Positions 412-18,632 of a stretch of 18,895 nt of DNA are shown here, piece by piece. The stretch comes from a candidate division FCPU426 bacterium (GTDB taxonomy: Bacteria > Oederibacteriota > JAAXVQ01 > JAUVAV01), in the NCBI GenBank assembly GCA_030637655.1, contig DAOWGI010000110.1:1-18895 (forward strand), given 5' to 3'. Made by a program: the position numbers and the translations under genes. Positions within the stretch are counted from its first letter, which is position 1; each line of letters starts with the position of its first letter. The notes below the pieces were generated by a model. The model saw only the letters and a list, made by a program, of their open reading frames with translations. It did not search any database and was not told the DNA's origin.

Positions 412-745
412 TTAAAACTTACTCCTCGGATGTGCTTTGATATACTCTTTTCGTTTTTTATCATTTGCCACATGGGTATAAATTTGAGTAGTTGCTATTG
501 ATGAATAACCTAATAGTTCCTGGATTGTGCGCAGGTCGCATCCTTTGTCCAAAATGAGTAGCGTATGAATGCCTGAGAGTGTGTGGAGTAGACGGCGGAT
601 CGATACTGGCCAGCAGGGAAGCGCGGTTGATGATCTTTTGGATCATATTTCTCGTTATCCCGAAAAGATTATCCTTGTCCTTGTTAGGCTTCTGAAGAGA
701 GCCGAGATACTTGATAATTGCCAAGTAGACATAAGAAAAATTCAT
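412..745 (-). pseudogene. XerC/XerD-like tyrosine recombinase C-terminal fragment, frameshifted
   Basis: TPHTLRHSYATH in one frame; after a shift near 553 another frame reads LDKGCDLRTIQELLGYSSIATTQIYTHVANDKKRKEYIKAHPRSKF* (stop 412-414). Canonical LGH is LGY; N-terminal part absent. Confidence 0.88.
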
Positions 746-5891: not shown

Positions 5892-6362
5892 TTATTCAAT
5901 CTCCGTTACATACATCTTGCGCATATCTTCAATATACGACGTGCTGTATTCTTGTGGATATCCGCGCAAGACTTGACGGGCGTAGGTGAAAGCCACAAAC
6001 AAAGGCAGGTGTCGATTGGTCTCCTCTGCGTAGAATTTGTCAACCAAAAATTTGATTTCGCTGTTAGTGTATTGGGTAGGATATTTAAGCATATCCATAA
6101 ATTCACCGAGATCCAAATTGTCATAATTTTGAGTTTCCACCACACCCTGCAATAAATTAAGCACATAGTCATAACCACTCACAAAACCTGAAGTATAGAG
6201 CAGCAAGGACCCCGGCGGAGAACGCTTATCCATCACAGCCCAAAACACACCATCCATGTTTTTAAGATTTTTTTCAGGGGAAGTGCTTTTAGGGTCTGCC
6301 GCGACGCCGGCAAGGGGAAGCAGCAGAGCACACACCAGGCATATACTCAGTATTCTTTTCAT
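5892..6362 (-). CDS. Exported hypothetical protein with N-terminal signal peptide
   Basis: ATG at 6362 preceded by GGAGG; MKRILSICLVCALLLPLAGVAA-D signal-like N-terminus; convergent with typA. Confidence 0.75.
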   Translation of the reverse strand: MKRILSICLVCALLLPLAGVAADPKSTSPEKNLKNMDGVFWAVMDKRSPPGSLLLYTSGFVSGYDYVLNLLQGVVETQNYDNLDLGEFMDMLKYPTQYTNSEIKFLVDKFYAEETNRHLPLFVAFTYARQVLRGYPQEYSTSYIEDMRKMYVTEIE

Positions 6363-6488
6363 ACTTTCCTCCACATACTATCTTCGTAAAAAACAGCCGG
6401 AGGCTGAAATTAAAAATCAGGTATATTGCGCTTAAAAGCAGTTGTGGGCCTAAACAGAAAAAAGCGCACGTTTTCCGCGAAAGAATAT

Positions 6489-6812: not shown

Positions 6813-6843
6813 AAAAAACCGGTCCTTAGGGGCCGTTTTTTTT
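6813..6843 (+). terminator. Rho-independent terminator, probably bidirectional
   Basis: AAAAAAC-CGGTCC-TTAG-GGGCCG-TTTTTTTT directly after csp. Confidence 0.8.
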
Positions 6844-6913
6844 GCCGGCAAAAGGTGGGCCTTGGCAGTAGCACACCATTCCCTACAGCTCAAAAAGCAA
6901 GGAGCCTTGAGTC

Positions 6914-7582
6914 ATGTCGCGTCCTGTTCAAAATGCCATTGTTATTGGGTTGCTGATGTTGCTGGCAGTACCAAGCCAAAGCGGCATTTTTAAAAAAAAA
7001 GAGGAACGGATAGACTTACCCAAACCCAGTATCACCGAGGGAAAGAGCGTTGCCCAGGCACTGCAGCAGGCGAAGGCAACCAAAAAGTACAAATCCACCG
7101 CACTGACATTGGAAACCATTTCGCAACTGCTGTGGGCAGGACAGGGAGTGATTGATAAAAAAACCGGAGAGCGGACCGCGCCTTCAGTCATGAACTTCCA
7201 TATGCTGGATACCTATCTGCTGGTGGATCAGGTGCAGGGACTTGACATTGGTCTTTACCGCTACCATCCGAAAAAGCACCAACTGGCATTGCTCCGGACC
7301 GGGGACGTAAAGAAAAAAATGTGTCAAGCCCTGAGGTATGGAGAAGTTCGACAGGCACCAGTGAGTGTGATATTGGTTGGGCTGAGTATTCGCACACCCA
7401 ATCCCGAATGGTTATACCTGGAAGCCGGCCATGCGGCGCAGAATATCATCTTGCAAGCCGCGGCCCTGGACCTGGGGACACGTGCCATGACCGGATTTAA
7501 AGAGAAGAAGATACGCGCGATTTTACAACTTTCGGAAAAAGAAATACCTATCTATGTATTGCCCATTGGGAAAAGAAAATAG
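6914..7582 (+). CDS. SagB/ThcOx-family nitroreductase-like dehydrogenase with hydrophobic N-terminus
   Basis: IDLPKP, LTLETISQLLWAGQG, RTAPS, GLYRYHP, YLEAGHAAQNIILQAAALDLG, YVLPIGK. Confidence 0.88.
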   Translation: MSRPVQNAIVIGLLMLLAVPSQSGIFKKKEERIDLPKPSITEGKSVAQALQQAKATKKYKSTALTLETISQLLWAGQGVIDKKTGERTAPSVMNFHMLDTYLLVDQVQGLDIGLYRYHPKKHQLALLRTGDVKKKMCQALRYGEVRQAPVSVILVGLSIRTPNPEWLYLEAGHAAQNIILQAAALDLGTRAMTGFKEKKIRAILQLSEKEIPIYVLPIGKRK

Positions 7583-7716
7583 AAGTAAATCCCTTGCCCG
7601 CATCAAAACCTCTAAAGACAGATTCTTCAGCCAAAAGTAATTCCTAAAAAAAGAGGAAATGAAATGATTATTTTAAACTGTTTGCCGATGACGTTGTATA
7701 TATAAAAGATATTTGC

Positions 7717-7745
7717 TTGCGTGAAAAGATAAGCAAGATTATTAT
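7717..7745 (+). promoter_or_regulatory. Putative sigma70 promoter at the start of the defence island
   Basis: TTGCGT, 17 bp, TATTAT; overlapped by inverted repeat TTGCTT...AAGCAA. Confidence 0.45.
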
Positions 7746-7760
7746 AGGGTGAATTCGATA

Positions 7761-7783
7761 TGAAGGAGTTGGGGTATGAATAA
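7761..7783 (+). repeat. hsdM-like 3' tail / RBS direct repeat, copy 1 (KELGYE*)
   Basis: TGAAGGAGTTGGGGTATGA (7761-7779) is 18/19 identical to 9591-9609. Confidence 0.65.
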
Positions 7784-8897
7784 AATCACAATAAAGAATA
7801 AAAATCTACTGCTGAAAATACGAGAGCTCATTCTATCAGCCCGCACAGCTGCGGTCCGCAGTGTCAACACCCTGCAAGTGTTGACGAATTTTGAAATTGG
7901 ACGCCTGATTGTGGAACATGAACAGGCAGGCGCGAAGCGTGCGGCATACGGCAAGAAACTGCTTAAGGAGCTCTCGGCCATTTTGACAAAAGAATTCGGA
8001 AAAGGATTTTCTTTAACGAATCTAAAATTAATAAGGCGATTTTTTGTTTTATATTCACCTGTAATTGGCCGGACACTGTCCGACCAATTGGAAAAACTTG
8101 GAAAAGGTCAGACAGCGTCTGACCAATCTCAAATAATGCAAACACCATCGGCACAAATGAAAAAAGGGAATAAATCTTCCGGACTATTTACACTCAGCTG
8201 GTCTCATTATGTTTTTTTGATGGGGCTTGATGATGACCAACAAAGAAGTTTTTATGAGATTGAGACAAGTCAACAGAATTGGTCATTACGTGAATTGAAG
8301 AGGCAGTTTGATTCCGGACTGTATGAACGTTTGGCGTTAAGCAGAGACAAGAAAGGAATTAAGAAATTGGCTCAGGAAGGCCAAGTTGTTTCGAAGCCTG
8401 AAGATGTGTTTAAAGAACCGTATGTGCTGGAATTCTTGGGAATCGATGAAAAAACGAAATATTCCGAATCCGATCTGGAAACCGCCATTATCAATAAACT
8501 TGAACACTTTTTGCTGGAATTGGGCAAAGGATTTCTTTTTGAGGCCCGTCAGAAACGCTTCACCTTTGATGAGGAACACTTTTTCATTGATCTGGTTTTT
8601 TACAACCGGTTGTTGCAGTGCTATGTCCTGATTGACTTGAAGATTGGAAAACTTACGCATCAGGACCTGGGACAAATGCAGATGTACGTGAACTATTTTG
8701 ATCGTCATGTCAAAAAGCAGGATGAACATCCGACAGTGGGCATTATTCTGTGCAAGAAAAAACATGATGTCTTGGTTGAAATTACCCTTCCCAAAGATAC
8801 AGCCATTTATGCCAAAGAATACAAGCTTTATCTGCCATCCAAAGCGGAATTAAGGCGGAAGCTAATTGCCTGGTCAGAGGAAGAGGGCAAGGCATGA
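7776..8897 (+). CDS. yhcG: YhcG/DUF1016 PD-(D/E)xK nuclease family protein
   Basis: LTKEFGKGFS, LSWSHY, FYEIE...WSLRELKRQ, KEPYVLEFL, FLLELGKGF, IDLVFYNRLL, LIDLKIGKLTHQDLGQMQMYVNY, GIILC. Confidence 0.93.
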   Translation: MNKITIKNKNLLLKIRELILSARTAAVRSVNTLQVLTNFEIGRLIVEHEQAGAKRAAYGKKLLKELSAILTKEFGKGFSLTNLKLIRRFFVLYSPVIGRTLSDQLEKLGKGQTASDQSQIMQTPSAQMKKGNKSSGLFTLSWSHYVFLMGLDDDQQRSFYEIETSQQNWSLRELKRQFDSGLYERLALSRDKKGIKKLAQEGQVVSKPEDVFKEPYVLEFLGIDEKTKYSESDLETAIINKLEHFLLELGKGFLFEARQKRFTFDEEHFFIDLVFYNRLLQCYVLIDLKIGKLTHQDLGQMQMYVNYFDRHVKKQDEHPTVGIILCKKKHDVLVEITLPKDTAIYAKEYKLYLPSKAELRRKLIAWSEEEGKA

Positions 8898-9466
8898 TTT
8901 GCAGTCCGGTAATCCGTCAACGCTGTTCGATACGATTACAGGGATACGATTATTCGCAGGCCGGATTATATTTCATCACTATATGTTGCCAAAACCGATT
9001 AAATTTATTCGGTGAAATCAAAAACCATGAAATGATTTTGAATAATGCCGGGGAAATGATTAAATGCCAATGGCTGGAACTGATAAATCGTTTTAATAAT
9101 ATTACATTACATGAATTTGTTGTTATGCCCAATCATTTTCATGGAATCATTGAATCCGTAACAATCGAACAAATTGTAGGGGTGCCCCTTGTGGGTACCC
9201 TAAAAACAAGGGATCAACAACCAATAATGGGGCAACCACAAGGGATTGCCCCTACGCTGGGTGATATGGTGGGGGCATTCAAATCATTAACAACGGATGA
9301 ATATATTCGAAATATTAAACAAAATAAATGGCAGCCATTTTCCGGCAAATTATGGCAACGCAATTATTACGAACACATTATTCGCGACGAACAATCCTAT
9401 TTAAAAACATCCGAATATATCATCAACAATCCGATGAATTGGGAAAAGGACGATTATTATGCCTGA
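8894..9466 (+). mobile_element. REP-associated tyrosine transposase (RAYT, IS200-like Y1 HUH family)
   Basis: SIRLQGYDYSQAGLYFITIC, HUH motif MPNHFHGII, WQRNYYEHIIRD, catalytic Tyr in YIINNP; ATGA overlap with yhcG stop; adjacent GTAG REPs. Confidence 0.92.
9176..9255. repeat. REPIN (inverted REP pair) inside the RAYT coding sequence
   Basis: GTAGGGGTGCCCCTTGTGGGTACCCT...GGGGCAACCACAAGGGATTGCCCCTAC; near-identical to 9492-9572. Confidence 0.9.
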
Positions 9467-9491
9467 ACATTTTTACGCAATCATTTAAATC

Positions 9492-9572
9492 GTAGGGGTG
9501 CCCCTTGTGGGTACCCTAATAAACAAGTGATCAACAAGCAAGCATGGGGCAACCACAAGGGATTGCCCCTAC
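9492..9572. repeat. REPIN copy downstream of RAYT
   Basis: Same arms as 9176-9255; spacer differs by one inserted T and four substitutions. Confidence 0.9.
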
Positions 9573-9574
9573 AA

Positions 9575-9613
9575 AAAATGCAGGGGTTTTTGAAGGAGTT
9601 AGGGTATGAGTGA
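9575..9613 (+). pseudogene. Remnant 3' tail of hsdM (KMQGFLKELGYE*)
   Basis: Resembles the usual HsdM C-terminus (..LKELGY) and overlaps the hsdS start as in hsdM-hsdS coupling; begins right after the REPIN. Confidence 0.65.
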
Positions 9614-10912
9614 GTGGGTCTCTTTAAAATTACGGGAACTCGTTGGCGCGCCAATATCCGGTAGACGGCCTGTTGGTGGCGTTAGCACTGAGACCGAAGG
9701 TGTACCAAGTCTTGGCGGTGAAAACATTCGCGCCGATGGTGGGGTTTCGCTAGAAAATGTCAATCGTGTGCCCGATAAGTTTTATCGGCATATGCCAAAA
9801 GGACGACTGCAAGCACTCGACGTACTTATCAATAAGGATGGGGCGCAAACAGGTAAGGTTGGTATCTATGGGGGTGACTTTCCGGAAGCTGGTGTTAATG
9901 AACATATCTTTATTCTTCGTTCGAATAATGGTTCTATCGATCAACGTCTTCTTTATTACTACCTGCTGTTACCTGATACACAAGCCAAGATATCCCGGCG
10001 AATTACTGGTTCGGCGCAGCCAGGTCTAAATAGCGTATTCGTAGATGCAATTGAAATCAAGATACCGAAAAATGCAACAAATCAACACCGTATCGCCTCA
10101 ATCCTCTCAACCATCGATGAAGCCATCGAACAGACCGAAGCCCTGATTGCAAAGACGCAGCAGATCAAAGCAGGGCTGATGCACGACCTCTTCACTCGAG
10201 GTGTTCTACCCAACGGCCACCTCCGCCCCTCGCACGAGGAAGCGCCAGTGCTTTATAAGGACTCACGTTCTCCACTTGGATGGGTACCGAAGGAGTGGGA
10301 GGTGGCTCCTTTGTCCGAATTCTTGGAAGGGGGGCCTAAGAATGGATATAGCCCACCAGAGGTTTTTGAATGGGATGGCATGTATTCACTTGGACTGGGC
10401 TGTCTGACGGTCGATGGGTTTAGGGCCAAACAACTAAAGATTGTCTCGGCTGTTTCCCAAGCTTGTCACGACGCCGTTGTGAAAGATGGTGATTTTTTGC
10501 TTAGTCGTGCTAACACACAAGAACTCGTTGGACTTTGTGGAATCTTCCGGGATGTAGGTGGGCCATGTATTTATCCGGACCTCATGATGAGATTGAAACC
10601 AAATCGAGGAGTCTCAACTGCGTTTCTCGAACAGCTGCTTCTTAGTCCACTAATGCGTCTCCAAATCACAGCTGCGGCAGTCGGAACGTCCGGGAGCATG
10701 GTCAAGTTAAATTCACGGTCAGTTTTACGATTAATGATTGCTGGTCCTCAAGAGGAAGAACAGCAACAGATTCTTGTGGCATTCAATTACAGCGACAGGA
10801 ACTGGCAGCTCTAGAAAGCGAACTCATCAAGTTCCAGCAACTCAAACATGGTCTCATGCACGACCTCTTAACAGGTCGGGTGCGGGTAACCAAAGAACAG
10901 GAAACGCACTGA
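9606..10912 (+). pseudogene. hsdS: Type I restriction-modification specificity subunit HsdS, frameshift near the 3' end
   Basis: Two TRDs; central conserved helix QHRIASILSTIDEAI...KAGLMHDLFTRG; main frame stops at 10814 while the -1 frame continues QELAALESELIKFQQLKHGLMHDLLTGRVRV...ETH* (TGA 10910-10912). Confidence 0.9.
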
Positions 10913-11751
10913 TGGATATGACAGAACTTAACAAGATAAGACAAGAAATAACTGATAATTTCAACGCCAACCTTGAAGAAGTTAATAAGCTATTGAATTT
11001 TGATACTAATGTTTTAGAAAATGTAATAGAGAAATTAAACGGACTTCATAATATGGCAATTGAGAGATTAAAGCTTCATGAAAATCATGATTTTATGAAA
11101 AAGATGGTAAATACTACAAAAGAAATAGAAAACATTCGGGATCATGGTTCGGTTAATCAATGCTACTATAGCACTATAAATAATCAGTGTGTCGTGCTAC
11201 TGGTGTCACATTTTTCAGCAACCTTACACGATTTGTTTAGAAAAGTGATTGAAGTATATATTAATAATTCATTCACCGAGCATTTGGATGATGTGGCCAA
11301 AATTGAGTTTACGGTTAAGGAACTGATAGATCATAAGCAAGATGAAAAATGTATTGGCGATATAATATTGGATAAAGATAAAACCAAAAGCGTCAACTTT
11401 CAGGATATGAAAAGCACAAAACGGGTATTTGACAGTTGTTTTCAGATTAATTTGTTGAAAAATATAAGTGTGCATGAGGAAAACGTTATATTTGCTCAAA
11501 CGGCAAGGCATAATATTGTTCATAATGGAGCAATTGTTAATCAGCAATTTATCACAAGAATAAAAGCAGCATCAGGTAGAAATCTAAAACAAGATGTAGA
11601 GTTTGAAGATGGGCAGGTACTGAAGTTTAATCAAGATGAAATAGAAATATTAGAGAATAGCATGAAGGAATTTGTGAGTGACATTTTTAATAAAATAGAG
11701 GTGTATTTTAAAAATAAAAAAGAAACTGCTTCGGTGATTTGTGATGATTAA
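10912..11751 (+). CDS. Hypothetical protein with HEPN-like RxxxxH motif (putative RNase), 279 aa
   Basis: ATG overlaps the restored hsdS stop (TGATG); helical-looking sequence with RHNIVHNG near the C-terminus; AT-rich (17/60 G+C in 11041-11100). Confidence 0.65.
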   Translation: MDMTELNKIRQEITDNFNANLEEVNKLLNFDTNVLENVIEKLNGLHNMAIERLKLHENHDFMKKMVNTTKEIENIRDHGSVNQCYYSTINNQCVVLLVSHFSATLHDLFRKVIEVYINNSFTEHLDDVAKIEFTVKELIDHKQDEKCIGDIILDKDKTKSVNFQDMKSTKRVFDSCFQINLLKNISVHEENVIFAQTARHNIVHNGAIVNQQFITRIKAASGRNLKQDVEFEDGQVLKFNQDEIEILENSMKEFVSDIFNKIEVYFKNKKETASVICDD

Positions 11752-11772
11752 AAAGATAAAAATCATTTTGCG

Positions 11773-11838
11773 TACCACCACGTTGAAAAACCATTCCTTG
11801 ACCAGTTTTCAGAATTGGGCAGGAAGGTCATTGTACAG
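11773..11838 (+). repeat. Degenerate duplicate of the hsdR 5' end
   Basis: 11778-11805 is identical (28 bp) to 13432-13459; translates YHHVEKPFLDQFSELGRKVIVQ versus HsdR YLHVEKPFLDQLSALGWTVIDQ; no start codon. Confidence 0.92.
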
Positions 11839-11876
11839 AGACTAAATTTTATTCTTTTTAAATCAGGAGACCGGAA

Positions 11877-13421
11877 ATGACCACTAAGCTACCAATCAAC
11901 CTCTCAGCCCTTCTCCGCCAACGCACTGTCGAAGGTGAGCGGATTGAATATAAAAAGGGCTGGAATCCTGATGCAATCATCAGAACGATTTGTGCCTTTG
12001 CCAATGATTTCGAAAATCTGGGCGGTGGGTATGTGGTTATCGGGCAGGATTGCGGAACAGACGGTCGGCCCGTTTTTCCGCCTGTTGGTTTAAAAGACAA
12101 TCAACTCGACAAGATTCAACGCGAGTTGCTCCAGGCCTGCAATTTGATTGAGCCGTCCTATTTCCCGGTCCTTAGTGCGGAGCGTTTTGAGGGAAAGAAT
12201 ATTATCGTACTCTGGGCGCCGGGCGGACAGAATCGTCCTTACAAAGCACCAAAAGCTGTTACAGCCAAAACCAAGGAGTATCGCTACTACATCCGCCGCT
12301 ATTCAAGCACAATTGAGGCGCGTAACCAGGATGAGCGCGAGTTGCTGAGTTTGGCTGCCAATGTTCCTTTTGACGACCGTTACTATCAAGCAGCCAAGCC
12401 GGATGACCTGTCACCACGGCTGATGCAGGAATTTTTAAGTGAAGTAGGCAGCAATCTTGCGGATGAGGCCAAAAATCTCTCGACCGTTGACCTGGGCCGG
12501 CAGATGAATGTTGTGGGCGGTCCTGCGGAAGCTGCTTTTCCGAAAAATGTCGGTTTGCTGTTTTTTAACGAACAGCCGTATAAATATTTTCCAGCAACAC
12601 AGATTGATGTAGTGTGGTTTCCGGAAGGTGCGGGCGGAGACCGTTTTGACGAGAAAAGCTTTAAAGGGCCTCTTGCCCGCATAACCCGTGAGGCGCTTGA
12701 TTACATTGAGCGTAATTATCTCAAGGAAACTGTTATCAAGCACCCGGACCGGGCTGAAGCAGAGCGTTTATGGAACTTTCCCTATGCTGCTATTGAAGAA
12801 GCAGTGGTTAATGCGGTTTACCATCGTTCCTATGAGGAACGGGAGCCTATTGAAGTACGGATCACTCCGGAAGATATGGTTGTGTTAAGCTTTCCCGGTC
12901 CTGATCGTTCCATAAAAATGAAAGACCTTAGGATTGGTAAGGCAGTCAGCCGCCGCTATCGCAACCGGCGAATAGGGGAGTTTCTCAAAGAGCTGGATCT
13001 TACAGAAGGACGTTCTACCGGAATACCGAAGATATTAAAGATTATGAGTGCCAATGGATCACCGAAACCTGAATTTGAAACGGATGAGGACAGAACCTAT
13101 TTTTTAATACGGCTTCCGGTCCATAAACATGCAGCGCAGGAAGTTGCGTCAAAAGGTAATAACCAAGCACCCCTCAAGTACCCCTCAAGTACCCCTCAAG
13201 TCACAAAGTTTATACAGACGATCAAAGGGGAAATGAGTCGGGAGGAATTGATGAAAAAACTGGGATTAAAGGACAGGATGCATTTTTCCAGAGAATATCT
13301 GCAACCAGCATTATCCGAAGGAATGATTGAAATGACGATTCCCGACAAACCCCAAAGCAGTAAACAGCAGTACCGGTTAACTGAGAAGGGACGGCAAATA
13401 GTCCAAGAGGCTGCGGAATGA
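11877..13421 (+). CDS. Schlafen/AlbA_2 domain protein with HATPase_c_4 (RecG-C-like) domain and C-terminal winged HTH
   Basis: EGERIEYK...TICAFAN...GGGYVVIG (AlbA_2); EEAVVNAVYHRSY, YRNRRI, EGRSTGI (HATPase-like); YLQPAL..G.IEMTIPDKP.S.KQ.YRLT C-terminal HTH. Confidence 0.88.
   Translation: MTTKLPINLSALLRQRTVEGERIEYKKGWNPDAIIRTICAFANDFENLGGGYVVIGQDCGTDGRPVFPPVGLKDNQLDKIQRELLQACNLIEPSYFPVLSAERFEGKNIIVLWAPGGQNRPYKAPKAVTAKTKEYRYYIRRYSSTIEARNQDERELLSLAANVPFDDRYYQAAKPDDLSPRLMQEFLSEVGSNLADEAKNLSTVDLGRQMNVVGGPAEAAFPKNVGLLFFNEQPYKYFPATQIDVVWFPEGAGGDRFDEKSFKGPLARITREALDYIERNYLKETVIKHPDRAEAERLWNFPYAAIEEAVVNAVYHRSYEEREPIEVRITPEDMVVLSFPGPDRSIKMKDLRIGKAVSRRYRNRRIGEFLKELDLTEGRSTGIPKILKIMSANGSPKPEFETDEDRTYFLIRLPVHKHAAQEVASKGNNQAPLKYPSSTPQVTKFIQTIKGEMSREELMKKLGLKDRMHFSREYLQPALSEGMIEMTIPDKPQSSKQQYRLTEKGRQIVQEAAE
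13164..13201 (+). repeat. 11-bp tandem repeat, about 3.5 copies, inside the Schlafen gene linker
   Basis: CAAGCACCCCT CAAGTACCCCT CAAGTACCCCT CAAGT. Confidence 0.9.
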
Positions 13422-16400
13422 GCGAATACCTCCACGTTGAAAAACCATTCCTTGACCAGCTTTCAGCTCTTGGCTGGACGGTAATTGATCAAGGCCAGGG
13501 GATTATTCCGACTGATCCTACCAAAAGTCTGCGCTCAAATTTTCGGGAATGGATTTTGCCGGATGTTTTTCAAGAGGCGGTACAGTCAATTAATCTACTG
13601 CCCAAGGGCAAGTCTTGGCTAACGGAGCGGCAGCTTGATGATCTGCGTGATCAAATTCTCAGACTGCCAAACCGGACACTGCTTGAAGCCAATGAGAATG
13701 TGCAAAACCTATTTTTTAAGGCACAGGTTGGTGTCAATGAAATAACCGGCGAAGACGATCCGGTAGTAAAGCTAATTGACTTTGAGCATCCGGAGAAAAA
13801 TCAATTCCATACTATCAACCAATTTCGCATTGATACACCGGGGTGCGTGAAAAGCTTTATTATTCCTGACATTGTGCTTTTTGTAAATGGAATGCCTTTG
13901 GTTGTGGTAGAAGCCAAGATCGGTGATCCGAATACAGCCAATCCTTTACATGAAGCTTTTGTACAACTTTTGCGTTATCGGGATGGACGATCAGAAACTC
14001 AAAAGGCCGGACTGAGAGAAGGGGAACCGCGACTATTTTATACAAATCTGCTATTAGTTCGTACTTGTGGAGAAAAGGCGGAATTCGGAACTATTACCTC
14101 CGGTCATGAACACTTTTATGCCTGGAAAGATATCCGGCTGGAGAGCAAACAGAAATATAAACCACCTTTAGGTATTGAACGCGAGCAGGAAAAATTAGTG
14201 CAGGGATTGTTTTCACCTGCGATCTTGCTTGATGTGCTTCGTACCTGCGCGGTTTTTAAAGATACGGATGACGGCTGTCGTATAAAAGTCGTATGCCGAT
14301 ACCAACAATACCGTGCAGCCAGGAAAATTGTTGAACGGTTGCGTACAGGCAAGACTTCGGAATTACGGTCCGGTGTGATCTGGCACACGCAAGGTTCGGG
14401 CAAGTCCTTGACTATGGTGTTTGTTGCCCGAATGCTGAGAGCGTCAACTGATCTATCTGATATTAAAATAGTACTGGTCAATGACCGGGTGGATCTGGAA
14501 GAACAACTTGCAAGAACAGCCAAGCTGATAGGCGGCAAAATCAATGTTATAGAAAGTAAAGATCAGCTTTGGGAAGACCTGAGTACTGATGCTTCGAATG
14601 TTAATATGGTGATGGTGCATAAATTCAATGAGCAAGAGGAAGAGATTCCCATGATGGTCGCCGAGGCGGTGGCAACGTATAACGGTATCCCTGCAAGCGA
14701 TACTTTTGGTGTTGTGAATTACTCTGATCGCATCTTACTCATGATAGATGAGGCGCACCGTACCCAGGGCTCGGATTTGGGAGATAACCTTTTTGAGGCT
14801 TTTCCCAATGCCACGCGCATTGCCTTTACCGGCACTCCGCTGATTACCGAACAGCATGGAACCAGAAGAACTGTAAAACGTTTCGGTGAATATATTGATA
14901 TGTATAAGTTAATGGATGCGGTTAATGACAATGCCACCTTGCAGATTCTTTACGAAGGAAGGACTGCTGATACGGCGTTGCAGGACAAGCACGGATTTGA
15001 TACCAAGTTTGAGGATCTTTTTAAGGAACGAAGTGAAGAAGAAATTCTGGCTATCAAGAAAAAATACGGCGCTACCGGGGATATCCTGGAAGCAGAGAAG
15101 CGTATTGAGGCCATTGCCCGTGATCTGGTTAATCACTATATTGATAACATTTTGCCTGATGGGTTTAAAGCACAGGAGGTTTGCCATTCCAAGCTGGCGG
15201 CAATTAGATATCAAAAAGCCATCCGGGAAGCTTTACTTGAGAGACTGGATCAAGAAAAAGTCAAACCAGAACCTGATCTGGAGCTTATCCGTAAAATTGC
15301 TTTTCTAAAAGCCGTGGTGGTGATTTCTTCTGATCCAACCAACGAACCCGCAATAATCACAATAGCCCGTAAGCAAGCCAGGCACTGGAATGCAGTTGAG
15401 AATTTTTGTAAACCTTTTGACTTCAATGATCCTGACAAAGTACTCACTGGCATTGCCATTTTAATAGTCTGTGATATGTTGATTACAGGATTCGACGCAC
15501 CCATTGAGCAGGTTATGTACATAGATAAGAAACTTAAAGAACACAGCCTGCTGCAAGCCATTGCGCGTGTCAATAGGGTAAATACAAACAAACATCGTGG
15601 GTTTATTGTGGATTATATAGGACTGGCCAATCATCTTGCTTACGCGCTGTCAATTTACACAAAAGAAGATGCTCAAGATATTAAAGAGGGACTAAAGAAT
15701 ATTCTGAGTGAGATTCCCATACTGGAAGAACGTTATCAACGCTTGATCCAACATTTCCAATCAAATGGAGTTAGTGATATAAAAGCCTTTGTAAAGGGTT
15801 CGTTAAGCACGCCAGAGGCGGAGGTGGCGGTGCTGCACAAGTCTGTTGCCGCACTAAAGGAGATCAAACCACGGGCTGATTTTGAAGTGTATTTGAAGAA
15901 ATTTTTGCAAAGCTTAAATCTTATTTTACCCAATCCTGCCGGACATTCATTTCGCGGCCCAGCCAGGCGCTTTGGTTATATTCTTCGCATGGTCAAGGAA
16001 AGGTATAAAGATGAATCACTGAATATTGCAGATGCAGGCGCCAAGGTGAAAGCGCTGATTAATGAGCATCTTATTGATTTAGGCATCGATCCCAAAATAC
16101 CACCCATTGAATTGTTGTCCGAAGCATTTCTGGAACATGTGCAGAAACACTCGGACGGCAACCCGGAAGCTAAAGCCAGCGAAATGGAGCATGCCATTCG
16201 CAAACACTGTACAATCCACTTTGACGAAGACCCGGCATTTTATAAGCGGCTTAGCGAGAAGCTCGAAAAGCTGATTCAGGAACATCACAATAACTGGAAC
16301 GCGCTTGCTGAGGGTTATGAACAATTGAGGAAAGAAGCAATGGAAGGAAGAACCGCGACCGTTGAGGGTCTTGATAAAGAGGCTGTGATATTTTATGATT

Positions 16401-16672
16401 ATATTATTCAATTGGCTTTTCATGGAGATGAAATTCCGGAAGAAAAAAGCAGGTCCCTGAAAAAACTAATGCAGCGCATTGTAGAGATGCTGCAAGATAC
16501 AATCGGTGTTCTTGATTTCTGGAAAAAATCGATTGAAGTGAAGAAACTGCGCGGCAATATTGACACTGAGATATTATTGGCTGATATTCCGGAATTTAAT
16601 GAAAAACATGAACGCCTTGCGGTTGAGATTGTTAAACTGGCTGAAAAAAGACACAAGGAGTTAATCAAGTGA
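13418..16672 (+). CDS. hsdR: Type I restriction endonuclease subunit R
   Basis: PDIVLFVNGMPLVVVEAK nuclease motif, RYQQY, GVIWHTQGSGKS Walker A, IDEAHR, AFTGTP, MLITGFDAP, LLQAIARVNR; 1084 aa, uninterrupted. Confidence 0.97.
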   Translation: MSEYLHVEKPFLDQLSALGWTVIDQGQGIIPTDPTKSLRSNFREWILPDVFQEAVQSINLLPKGKSWLTERQLDDLRDQILRLPNRTLLEANENVQNLFFKAQVGVNEITGEDDPVVKLIDFEHPEKNQFHTINQFRIDTPGCVKSFIIPDIVLFVNGMPLVVVEAKIGDPNTANPLHEAFVQLLRYRDGRSETQKAGLREGEPRLFYTNLLLVRTCGEKAEFGTITSGHEHFYAWKDIRLESKQKYKPPLGIEREQEKLVQGLFSPAILLDVLRTCAVFKDTDDGCRIKVVCRYQQYRAARKIVERLRTGKTSELRSGVIWHTQGSGKSLTMVFVARMLRASTDLSDIKIVLVNDRVDLEEQLARTAKLIGGKINVIESKDQLWEDLSTDASNVNMVMVHKFNEQEEEIPMMVAEAVATYNGIPASDTFGVVNYSDRILLMIDEAHRTQGSDLGDNLFEAFPNATRIAFTGTPLITEQHGTRRTVKRFGEYIDMYKLMDAVNDNATLQILYEGRTADTALQDKHGFDTKFEDLFKERSEEEILAIKKKYGATGDILEAEKRIEAIARDLVNHYIDNILPDGFKAQEVCHSKLAAIRYQKAIREALLERLDQEKVKPEPDLELIRKIAFLKAVVVISSDPTNEPAIITIARKQARHWNAVENFCKPFDFNDPDKVLTGIAILIVCDMLITGFDAPIEQVMYIDKKLKEHSLLQAIARVNRVNTNKHRGFIVDYIGLANHLAYALSIYTKEDAQDIKEGLKNILSEIPILEERYQRLIQHFQSNGVSDIKAFVKGSLSTPEAEVAVLHKSVAALKEIKPRADFEVYLKKFLQSLNLILPNPAGHSFRGPARRFGYILRMVKERYKDESLNIADAGAKVKALINEHLIDLGIDPKIPPIELLSEAFLEHVQKHSDGNPEAKASEMEHAIRKHCTIHFDEDPAFYKRLSEKLEKLIQEHHNNWNALAEGYEQLRKEAMEGRTATVEGLDKEAVIFYDYIIQLAFHGDEIPEEKSRSLKKLMQRIVEMLQDTIGVLDFWKKSIEVKKLRGNIDTEILLADIPEFNEKHERLAVEIVKLAEKRHKELIK

Positions 16673-17397
16673 AAGGGTTGAAAGAAAAGAGTATCCCATA
16701 CGAGGTCGTTCGCAGTCAACGAGCAACAGCTGATATTATCATTGAAAGGGATGGCAGTGTGCTGGTACGCGCTCCTGTTGAAATGGGGGACGAACAGATA
16801 AATGATATTGTAATATCAAAGTACTACTGGATGTATAAAAGCCTGGCTGAGTGGCGAGATTTGAACGCAACCCGGGAACTGCGGGAATACAAGAATGGTG
16901 AAGGATTTTTATATCTGGGTTGTGCTTACCGGTTGCTGTTGGTCCATAACCAGAAAGAACCGCTGAAATTAAAAGACGGTAGGTTTTGTCTCCGCCGGGA
17001 CATTGTTGAACAAGACGGAATTAGTAGGGGCACAAAATTTTGTGCCCCTACTGTCAAAAAGACCTTCCGAGACTACTATACCAAACGCGGAATAGAGCGT
17101 ATCAACCAGCGCGTGAGTTATTATGCGCCCAAGGTTGGAGTAATTCCGAAAGCAGTGAATGTCCGCGAGATAGGGCATCACTGGGCCACTTGCTCACCAA
17201 GTGGAATGCTGGCTTTTCACTGGAAATGCATGATGGCTCCTCAGACGATTATCGATTACATCGTGGTTCACGAGCTGTGCCACTTTCACCATCGAGATCA
17301 TACGGGTGTATTTTGGAATGAGGTTGATAAAGTAATGCCCAAGTACCGGGAGAGAAAAGAATGGCTCCGCAAGAATGGCGCGGGATTGGATGTGTAA
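16669..17397 (+). CDS. M48/YgjP (DUF45) family zinc metallopeptidase-like protein
   Basis: VLVRAP, NGEGFLYLG, IIDYIVVHELCH (HExxH), H...FWNEV; GTGA overlap with hsdR stop; typical hsdR neighbour. Confidence 0.92.
   Translation: MKGLKEKSIPYEVVRSQRATADIIIERDGSVLVRAPVEMGDEQINDIVISKYYWMYKSLAEWRDLNATRELREYKNGEGFLYLGCAYRLLLVHNQKEPLKLKDGRFCLRRDIVEQDGISRGTKFCAPTVKKTFRDYYTKRGIERINQRVSYYAPKVGVIPKAVNVREIGHHWATCSPSGMLAFHWKCMMAPQTIIDYIVVHELCHFHHRDHTGVFWNEVDKVMPKYRERKEWLRKNGAGLDV
17023..17052. repeat. Perfect 30-bp GTAG REP palindrome in frame within the M48 gene
   Basis: AGTAGGGGCACAAAA|TTTTGTGCCCCTACT, exactly codons 119-128 (SRGTKFCAPT). Confidence 0.9.
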
Positions 17398-17410
17398 AGG
17401 ATATGTTTTG

Positions 17411-17446
17411 AATGAATTACCCGGAATTAATTCCGGGTAATTCATT
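17411..17446. repeat. Perfect 36-bp palindrome at the end of the island operon
   Basis: AATGAATTACCCGGAATT|AATTCCGGGTAATTCATT. Confidence 0.9.
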
Positions 17447-17480
17447 TGTTCTATCTCTGGCATAAATATTAGGAGGTTTT

Positions 17481-17788
17481 ATGAATTTAAACGAGTTTGA
17501 AGGAGAGGCATTATCACGATTCACAAAAGAAAGCACAGAAAAACTATTTATAACAATGAATGGTAATTTTCGGTAGTGGATGTAATTGAAGCATTAACAG
17601 GAAATGATCGGCCAAGAAAATATTGGAGTGATCTCAAGAAAAAATTTATAGATAAAGGTTGTTCTGAAGTGTCCGAAAAAATCGGACAGTTGAAAGTAGA
17701 AGCTCCTGATTGGAAAATGCGTGAAACCAACTGCGCCAATACGACGCCCCTCGTGCATACCCAATGGGCACAAGGAGAAAGGGGCTGA
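17481..17788 (+). pseudogene. BRO-N / phage antirepressor-like pseudogene
   Basis: AGGAGG RBS plus ATG at 17481; after a frameshift reads RKTIYNNEW*FSVVDVIEALTGNDRPRKYWSDLKKK...EVSEKIGQLKVEAPDWKMRETNCANT; internal TAA and loss of the C-terminus. Confidence 0.82.
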
Positions 17789-18543: not shown

Positions 18544-18570
18544 GCAGGCGAACACAAGGTTCGCCCCTAC
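18544..18570 (-). repeat. Single GTAG REP
   Basis: Minus strand GTAGGGGCGAACCTTGTGTTCGCCTGC, related to the REPIN arm GTAGGGGCAATCCCTTGTGGTTGCCCC. Confidence 0.82.
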
Positions 18571-18593
18571 GGGTCGCCTGCTCGTACGTGTCC

Positions 18594-18632
18594 GTAAATC
18601 AAGTGTACGATATTTTCGTACACTTGATTTAC
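18594..18632. repeat. 17-bp perfect inverted repeat with 5-nt loop
   Basis: GTAAATCAAGTGTACGA-TATTT-TCGTACACTTGATTTAC. Confidence 0.9.

Follow-up and report, generated by a model that had tools for sequence, protein, structure and literature searches.

A probably decayed type I restriction-modification operon with embedded putative defence genes in a candidate division FCPU426 bacterium

We analyzed an 18,895-nucleotide (nt) stretch of DNA from a candidate division FCPU426 bacterium (contig DAOWGI010000110.1 of assembly GCA_030637655.1; hereafter "the window", i.e., the entire contig C91 of a 3.28 Mb source genome in 120 contigs, 91.55% complete), which carries an open hsdR gene, encoding the restriction subunit of a type I restriction-modification (R-M) system, among several nuclease-like genes. 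Overall, this locus is very probably a type I R-M operon in decay, with cargo genes embedded in it, rather than a methylase-less system: the methylase gene hsdM has left only 3'-end scars, the specificity gene hsdS is frameshifted, and the relatives of this hsdR almost invariably come with hsdM. A preliminary description, made from the sequence without database searches, had recognized seven genes in one orientation (yhcG, RAYT, frameshifted hsdS, HEPN, Schlafen/AlbA_2, hsdR, and an M48 gene), often with overlapping stop and start codons. Profile matches confirmed this layout, with stop/start overlaps at five junctions among the seven genes, and the gene identifications, HEPN and Schlafen included, were correct. 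The features of the locus are as follows, with G001 denoting a relative genome of the same family.

7760-7783, plus strand: hsdM 3'-end remnant 1, reading MKELGYE-stop, overlapping the yhcG start; 22/23 nt identical to the end of G001 hsdM.
7776-8897, plus strand: YhcG/DUF1016 PD-(D/E)xK nuclease, cargo (PF06250 1e-52, PF17761 2e-37, PADLOC PDC-S02 4e-136).
8894-9466, plus strand: RAYT-like HUH tyrosine transposase (NF047646 2e-19, 69.7 bits, below the cut-off of 80; Y1_Tnp 9e-6).
9478-9572, no strand assigned: REP pair (REPIN-like) directly 5' of the second hsdM tail; 93% identity (86 nt) with the copy in RAYT, hairpin z -3.0.
9574-9613, plus strand: hsdM 3'-end remnant 2, reading MQGFLKELGYE-stop at 9578-9613, overlapping the hsdS start; 34/37 nt identical to G001.
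9606-10912, plus strand: hsdS pseudogene (PF01420); open reading frame (ORF) stops at 10814, other-frame stop at 10910-10912.
10912-11751, plus strand: stand-alone HEPN protein, putative RNase cargo; 279 amino acids (aa), GC 0.305, R199/H204 invariant.
11773-11833, plus strand: degenerate second copy of the hsdR 5' end that lacks a start codon; 85% identity over 61 nt to 13427-13487.
11877-13421, plus strand: prokaryotic Schlafen, cargo, with SLFN_AlbA_2, HATPase_c_4, and winged-helix domains (PF04326, PF13749, PF21247).
13418-16672, plus strand: hsdR, open frame; TIGR00348 above cut-off, nuclease and helicase motifs.
16669-17397, plus strand: YgjP/DUF45 metallopeptidase-like gene (PF01863 5e-50), carrying a REP palindrome in frame at 17023-17052.
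17409-17448, plus strand: perfect 18-bp hairpin 3' of ygjP, terminator-like, z -7.6.
17510-17788, plus strand: Bro-like pseudogene, downstream of the region first described (PDC-S13 8e-16), with an internal stop in ~17510-17743.

We first consider the loss of hsdM. The preliminary description had reported no hsdM, and the window indeed holds no full-length copy; the gene is not entirely absent, since 3' tails survive at 7760-7783 and 9574-9613. Both tails can be read against G001, which has an intact hsdM of 847 aa, and are 92-96% identical to the end of that gene (34/37 and 22/23 nt), in a subfamily whose HsdM proteins usually finish in an ELGY-type end. The tail at 9574-9613 matches the true hsdM end and a duplicated tail of G001 equally well (34/37 nt in both cases), and its first bases fit the G001 duplicate form, not the hsdM body; judging by its sequence, this remnant is a duplicated hsdM end forming a cassette spacer. 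The order in G001 runs from the hsdM end through a collapsed yhcG piece to the duplicate tail, and locus L053 of Thiorhodococcus minor displays the complete order hsdM-yhcG-tail copy-hsdS. Given the tail remnants and these two gene orders, hsdM originally lay 5' of yhcG and its body was presumably removed. The last 20-odd bases of hsdM remain in place, where they would double as the ribosome-binding site of yhcG. The other cargo slot carries a comparable mark, i.e., Schlafen is framed by hsdR and the 61-nt copy of its start (11773-11833), just as hsdM tail copies frame the upstream cargo, and G001 has two such hsdR-start copies. From these remnants and the relatives, the ancestral operon may be reconstructed as hsdM-yhcG-RAYT/REP-(hsdM tail copy)-hsdS-HEPN-(hsdR start copy)-Schlafen-hsdR-ygjP.

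A possible deletion route is recombination between short repeats flanking hsdM: in G001, the same 13-mer occurs 58 nt 5' of the hsdM start and at the hsdM end. As a general route, upstream repeats of the hsdM tail were rejected, because 46 loci yielded two 10-nt matches, probably by chance, and the 13-mer was found only in G001. Duplication of the hsdM tail as a general trait of the subfamily was likewise discarded, with a protein motif scan detecting it in 1/40 loci.

Two further loci display related forms of decay. On contig C36 of G001 (L099:6712-17739), the pattern is a mirror image of the window, with hsdM and hsdS intact and yhcG and Schlafen collapsed; this locus also has a different Schlafen between hsdM and hsdS, an hsdR interrupted by an IS21-like element, and a REP palindrome in frame within hsdM. 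In the source genome itself, a second copy of the operon at C62:431-1035 (minus strand; locus L018) has collapsed to ~600 bp, with 92% nucleotide identity to the window where the two can be aligned. This relic consists of REP, an hsdM tail, the start of a frameshifted hsdS whose recognition domain differs and which runs into the end of Schlafen, and the first 25 hsdR codons.

The second lesion lies in hsdS, whose frame shifts near 10780-10790, so that the conserved C-terminal helix is lost from the ORF ending at 10814; in a three-frame view, this helix resumes in another frame until the stop at 10910-10912, which overlaps the HEPN start. Phase variation was considered and rejected, as the break has no simple repeat tract. 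The frameshift may have preceded or followed the hsdM deletion. Both lesions were checked against public contigs from four of seven listed runs, those holding window DNA being cold-seep metagenomes: X1, X3, and X4 are three samples of one study, one of which may be the source sample, and X5 belongs to a second study. Contigs of X1 match positions 7595-9154 and 9547-17052 with zero differing letters and zero gaps, those of X3 cover 7602-9154 and 10004-10908, and those of X4 cover 6824-7985 and 10613-11058. The hsdS frameshift, as first described, was reproduced without gaps in X1, X3, and X4, and the left junction was crossed unchanged by X4 (6824-7985) and by X1 and X3 from 7595 and 7602, respectively. 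The contigs of these three runs thus place both features in the DNA of the samples. Run X5 had zero depth over 10210-11472 and is uninformative there. One X1 contig joins 9617 to 13327 at a depth of 12.6 vs 13.2 for the island, and probably represents the C62 relic.

The active form of a type I enzyme is R2M2S1, in which S needs M2 for DNA binding (as stated in PMC12707154). With M deleted and S truncated, HsdR is left without a loading platform, and the R-M system would thus be inactive and non-toxic: lacking M2S, HsdR can, as is established, neither load on DNA nor cut, and would be harmless and free to drift, a drift for which the signal in the present data is weak.

Next, we evaluated whether relatives of this hsdR occur with hsdM. 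Among 524 confirmed relatives, the best 80 were kept, corresponding to 71 loci with 73-82% identity across many phyla. At least 50% of hsdM was visible in 36/40 loci with at least 8 kb of upstream DNA. In the remaining four, the 3' part lay at the locus edge (L040), hsdM was located on the same strand of the contig at upstream distances of 12 and 14 kb (L090 and L098), or an internally deleted copy was present (L028). Hence, 39 of the 40 informative loci have a cognate hsdM upstream (one partly in view), and the other has a collapsed copy. Within the phylum, this HsdR subfamily (E ≤ 1e-100) was detected in 2/99 genomes, the other one being G001, which has hsdM. Decay was one of the options in the preliminary description, with hsdM in close relatives as its expected sign, and it is the one supported by these 39 loci and G001. 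In 10 genomes searched on account of an incomplete or missing hsdM at the locus, the cognate gene was found in 5, a remnant in 1, and neither in 4. At one of the latter (L078:4560-7811), a well-conserved hsdR follows unrelated genes over 4.5 kb upstream, with no cognate hsdM in the bin; this may be a true orphan or a binning gap.

The same relatives delineate chassis and cargo. A ygjP gene stands 3' of hsdR in 65/71 loci, and is thus part of the chassis, not cargo. By comparison, YhcG was found in 2 of the 71 loci, RAYT in 1, and this HEPN in 0, while Schlafen lies directly 5' of hsdR in 5 (two of them contig-edge pieces). When both the hsdM end and hsdR were in view, 33/46 loci held cargo between them; mechanical calling (non-HsdS ORFs of at least 100 aa) gave 80 ORFs, which fell into 50 clusters. 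For 32 of the 50 cluster representatives, a PADLOC match was obtained (E ≤ 1e-10), including AbiE, DarTG, SIR2-pAgo, Dsr1, Kiwa, Olo, and Nsn models. The cargo slot is interchangeable between relatives. The host would thus be a member of a widespread subfamily of the form hsdM-hsdS-cargo-hsdR-ygjP, in which passenger defence genes gathered in two slots and restriction was then lost.

Two recurrent cargoes without PADLOC match at E ≤ 1e-10 stand out in this set. The commonest of the subfamily is a two-gene cargo (~350 and 281 aa) directly 5' of hsdR in seven Verrucomicrobiota loci (L040, L042, L044, L055, L057, L061, and L077), a possible candidate defence pair. The other is a single 560-aa gene between hsdS and hsdR in L081, L085, and L091 (~8180-9870).

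Alternatively, hsdM could be missing for technical reasons or be supplied from elsewhere. An assembly or binning artefact, in which hsdM was lost where REP repeats separate RAYT from hsdS, or ended up on a contig outside the bin, would be favored by the fragmentation into 120 contigs at 91.55% completeness, several of them ending in this REP family. The preliminary description had pointed to possible assembly errors at ~7590-7760 and ~9575: the first of these junctions is sound in the public contigs, while no listed contig spans the REP repeats at 9154-9547, and the REP side of the REP-to-tail junction is covered by 27 letters only. However, the ancestral place of hsdM is 5' of yhcG, where X1, X3, and X4 contigs cross the junction unchanged; the tail at 9574 has the form of the duplicate, not that of the hsdM body; and the frameshift of hsdS in the same three runs would leave the system broken regardless. 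We therefore regard an artefact as improbable. A supply of HsdM and HsdS in trans, which the preliminary description had offered as an option, might draw on three further type I methylase loci of the genome, on contigs C36, C100, and C68. Yet each of these has its own hsdR, their M subunits share 36, 28, and 25% identity with the cognate M of G001, and their R subunits match the window HsdR at 26%, at 23%, and not at all for the third. Cognate HsdM homologues, on the other hand, share 66-79% identity (n = 38), and family, protein, and DNA searches of the 91.55%-complete genome recovered no cognate hsdM, with a best match of 36% identity. Type I families are defined by both complementation and sequence (PMC3874165). 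The genome-wide hsdM search suggested at the outset returned three unrelated methylase loci and tail scars only, and service in trans appears very unlikely. To our knowledge, type I subunits this distant do not exchange.

The headline proposal of the preliminary description was a novel methylase-less module, in which HsdR is kept as a helicase-nuclease working with or guarding HEPN, Schlafen, and YhcG. Such a module would be consistent with the open hsdR frame and its intact motifs, with the five Schlafen-hsdR loci noted above, and with a proposal of methylase-free HEPN/helicase proteins, although the latter are giant fusions (PMC3710099). It is unsupported by recurrence, i.e., this HEPN occurs in 0/71 hsdR loci, and this HsdR, Schlafen, YhcG, or YgjP in 0/80 HEPN loci, so that the anticipated combination of hsdR, Schlafen, and HEPN without hsdM was not recovered in either set. 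Moreover, the two Schlafen-hsdR loci with enough upstream DNA (L073 and L090) both have hsdM, the remnants point to a recent hsdM loss, and V587E, R385W, and R406Q replace HsdR residues invariant in 58 homologues. We consider a methylase-independent role of this HsdR highly improbable, and give just as little credence to the variant of a nascent module, too recent to have turned up in other genomes. A literature search on orphan or solitary hsdR found no methylase-less HsdR system, though one may still be in print.

The damage pattern itself is less telling than first described. Beyond M and S, which the preliminary description took to be the only damaged components, lesions include the REP insertion in ygjP, seven HsdR changes at residues invariant in 58 homologues (R385W, D394N, R406Q, V587E, E653Q, F681I, and L689I), and the internal stop of the Bro-like gene. 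The probability that two random lesions both fall in M or S is ~0.1 by length alone, so a pattern restricted to M and S would not be strong evidence. We compared departures from conserved residues across the genes, noting that homologue sets were gathered differently per gene. HsdR departs from the consensus at 17/556 conserved columns (3/58 homologues depart as much). YgjP has 6 departures (3/63 homologues have as many), ~2.3 standard deviations (SD) high after divergence correction, and an 8-residue REP-palindrome insertion unique among 64 sequences (hairpin z -6.8). For the cargo, YhcG shows 3 departures at 149 conserved columns (45/117 homologues have as many), Schlafen 1 (94/116 homologues have as many), and HEPN 0. 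Taken together, these counts weakly suggest a drifting chassis with maintained cargo.

Several observations nevertheless weigh against the decay of this operon as reconstructed here. HsdR is full length with nuclease and superfamily 2 helicase motifs all present, and its divergence-corrected excess is modest (17 departures observed, 13.1 ± 2.9 predicted, i.e., ~1.4 SD high), leaving the relaxed-selection signal weak. The three homologues that equal its departure count all have hsdM in the genome, and G001 HsdR shows more departures than the window HsdR over residues 1-677 (16 vs 12). The upstream DNA of the window has no detectable similarity to that of G001, which leaves a deletion via repeats unsupported, and the unbridged 9154-9547 interval adds to the same side. 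Finally, four hsdR loci (L078, L064, L056, and L038) have no cognate hsdM in their genome bins, with contigs ending 2-7 kb upstream, and other orphan hsdR genes may thus exist. For the selection signal specifically, the DNA of the closest hsdR is 79% identical, a distance at which recent relaxation would not be revealed.

Decay with embedded cargo fits several known patterns. Type I R-M loci often contain embedded genes ("guilt-by-embedding"; Payne et al., bioRxiv 10.1101/2024.01.29.577857). As in those loci, cargo in the window occupies the hsdM-hsdS and hsdS-hsdR slots, YhcG corresponds to PDC-S02, and relatives carry known systems at the same places; unlike them, this locus combines a dead host operon, its hsdM deleted and its hsdS frameshifted, with cargo that seems intact. 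Partial type I systems are also well documented, with only some hsd genes in 170/2145 genomes and hsd disruptions described as common (Loenen et al. 2014, PMC3874165). The window resembles these in its partial hsd set, its remnants, and the second collapsed copy in the genome, and is of the same kind; thanks to the scar of the hsdM tail, the event can be read with unusual ease.

YhcG, HEPN, and Schlafen keep their catalytic motifs, and are most likely independent nuclease or RNase defences if expressed, i.e., passengers that would act alone, if at all. A promoter scan found no sigma-70-like site above threshold 5' of yhcG, and the count for the region (25) fell inside the range of shuffled sequence (20 ± 4.3). 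The Schlafen motif E19-x4-E24-x-K26 (Ex4ExK) is invariant in 117 sequences and intact here, and 5756 relatives at E ≤ 1e-100 were found among 8000 scored. The window protein resembles prokaryotic Schlafens of the Slfn-HisKinase-HTH class, 19.2% of prokaryotic Schlafens (PMC13056530), in this motif and in domain order, when Pfam HATPase_c_4 is equated with the "HisKinase" of that study. In the section of that study on this point, only fusions to DUF262 or Ig-like domains conferred defence; HisKinase fusions had been selected as well, and none of them is named there as active.

The most useful lead is the HEPN gene, which belongs to an uncharacterized family: among representatives clustered at 50% identity, 414 relatives match at E ≤ 0.001. 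The window protein itself has no Pfam (E ≤ 0.05), NCBIfam, or PADLOC match and no useful PDB sequence match. The R199 and H204 residues of its Rx4H motif are invariant in 132 aligned members, 27 of which weakly match RiboL-PSP-HEPN PF18735 (best 2e-6). The AlphaFold model is nearly all-helical (pLDDT 92.9). Its best structural match was HEPN 4nqf (Z 8.4, middling for a helical protein; root-mean-square deviation 4.8 over 143 aligned residues), followed by further HEPN entries along the whole length, while Foldseek returned no match at E ≤ 0.001. The HEPN assignment follows from the fold, the motif, and the Pfam matches of relatives together, and the gene can be described as a putative RNase of an uncharacterized family distantly like RiboL-PSP-HEPN. 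With PF18735 proteins (Anantharaman et al. 2013, PMC3710099) it shares the HEPN fold and Rx4H with a polar residue after R; it differs in the lack of a Pfam match, its size of ~280 aa, and its unfused form.

The neighborhoods of this family (best 80 of 180 metagenome loci) contained this HsdR, Schlafen, YhcG, RAYT, or YgjP in 0/80 loci, and any type I-like match in 4/33 loci with at least 5 kb of flank. Of 73 neighbor ORFs, 69 were scanned, the other 4, from two near-duplicate loci, being dropped. Eco57I/MmeI-type methylases adjoin the HEPN gene in 6 loci, and the other neighbors were defence-like, housekeeping, or unknown; a common linkage of HEPN genes with R-M has been reported (PMC3710099). 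On this neighborhood evidence, the HEPN gene is apparently a roaming passenger. The 279-aa family may be an undescribed stand-alone anti-phage RNase, a suggestion we hold tentatively and at somewhat less than even probability. A resemblance to EcoprrI-PrrC (PMC3874165 and PMC12707154) lies in the position of an HEPN-type putative RNase between hsdS and hsdR. PrrC, however, is an ABC-ATPase-HEPN fusion that an intact type IC enzyme keeps latent and that is nearly always found in type I loci, whereas the window protein is a lone HEPN without an ATPase domain and with a type I-like match in only those 4/33 family loci. An identity as PrrC or RloC was rejected on these grounds, i.e., no N-terminal ABC-ATPase and no tight type I linkage.

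More broadly, type I R-M operons may serve as landing pads, with passengers gathering between short duplicated gene ends and able to outlast the host enzyme, and decay would usually be the explanation when a metagenome bin has an open hsdR and no hsdM. An HsdR acting without M2S would contradict a fundamental principle of type I enzymes, and the evidence speaks against it.

The three other type I loci of the source genome also carry cargo or unusual architectures. C36:81036-91126 is a complete operon with Schlafen-like, hsdM, hsdS, Bro-like, hsdR, and ygjP-like genes; the Bro-like pseudogene of the window shares 42% identity with a 280-aa gene of this locus (residues 9-84). C100:23190-34674 includes, as cargo, a DarT/DarG-like pair (identified by eye from N-termini) and a Schlafen-like gene, and C68:9233-14613 has a fused HsdM-HsdS of 865 aa behind hsdR.

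What we take to be RAYT, REP, REPIN, Bro-like, and IS-type features are so labeled partly from known motifs. RAYT contains an in-frame REP pair at ~9162-9255 (hairpin z -2.7). The REP family, GTAGGGG...CCCCTAC, forms 88 hairpins genome-wide under a strict regular expression, at several contig ends and in frame in genes; in the window, it occurs at 9162-9572, 17023-17052, and 18550-18630.

The preliminary description had placed both island boundaries inside the window. This holds for a change of gene content at the edges, and not for a boundary signature: no boundary repeat was listed there, no integrase adjoins the island, and the GC of the region is 0.434 vs 0.451 for the genome. Elsewhere in the window, a 160-aa predicted secreted protein without Pfam or NCBIfam match lies at 5892-6374 (minus strand) between typA and a cold-shock gene, an integrase fragment adjoins tRNA-Arg at 461-745 (minus strand), and a 119-nt repeat is found 3' of two tRNA genes, at 804-994 and 1692-1882.

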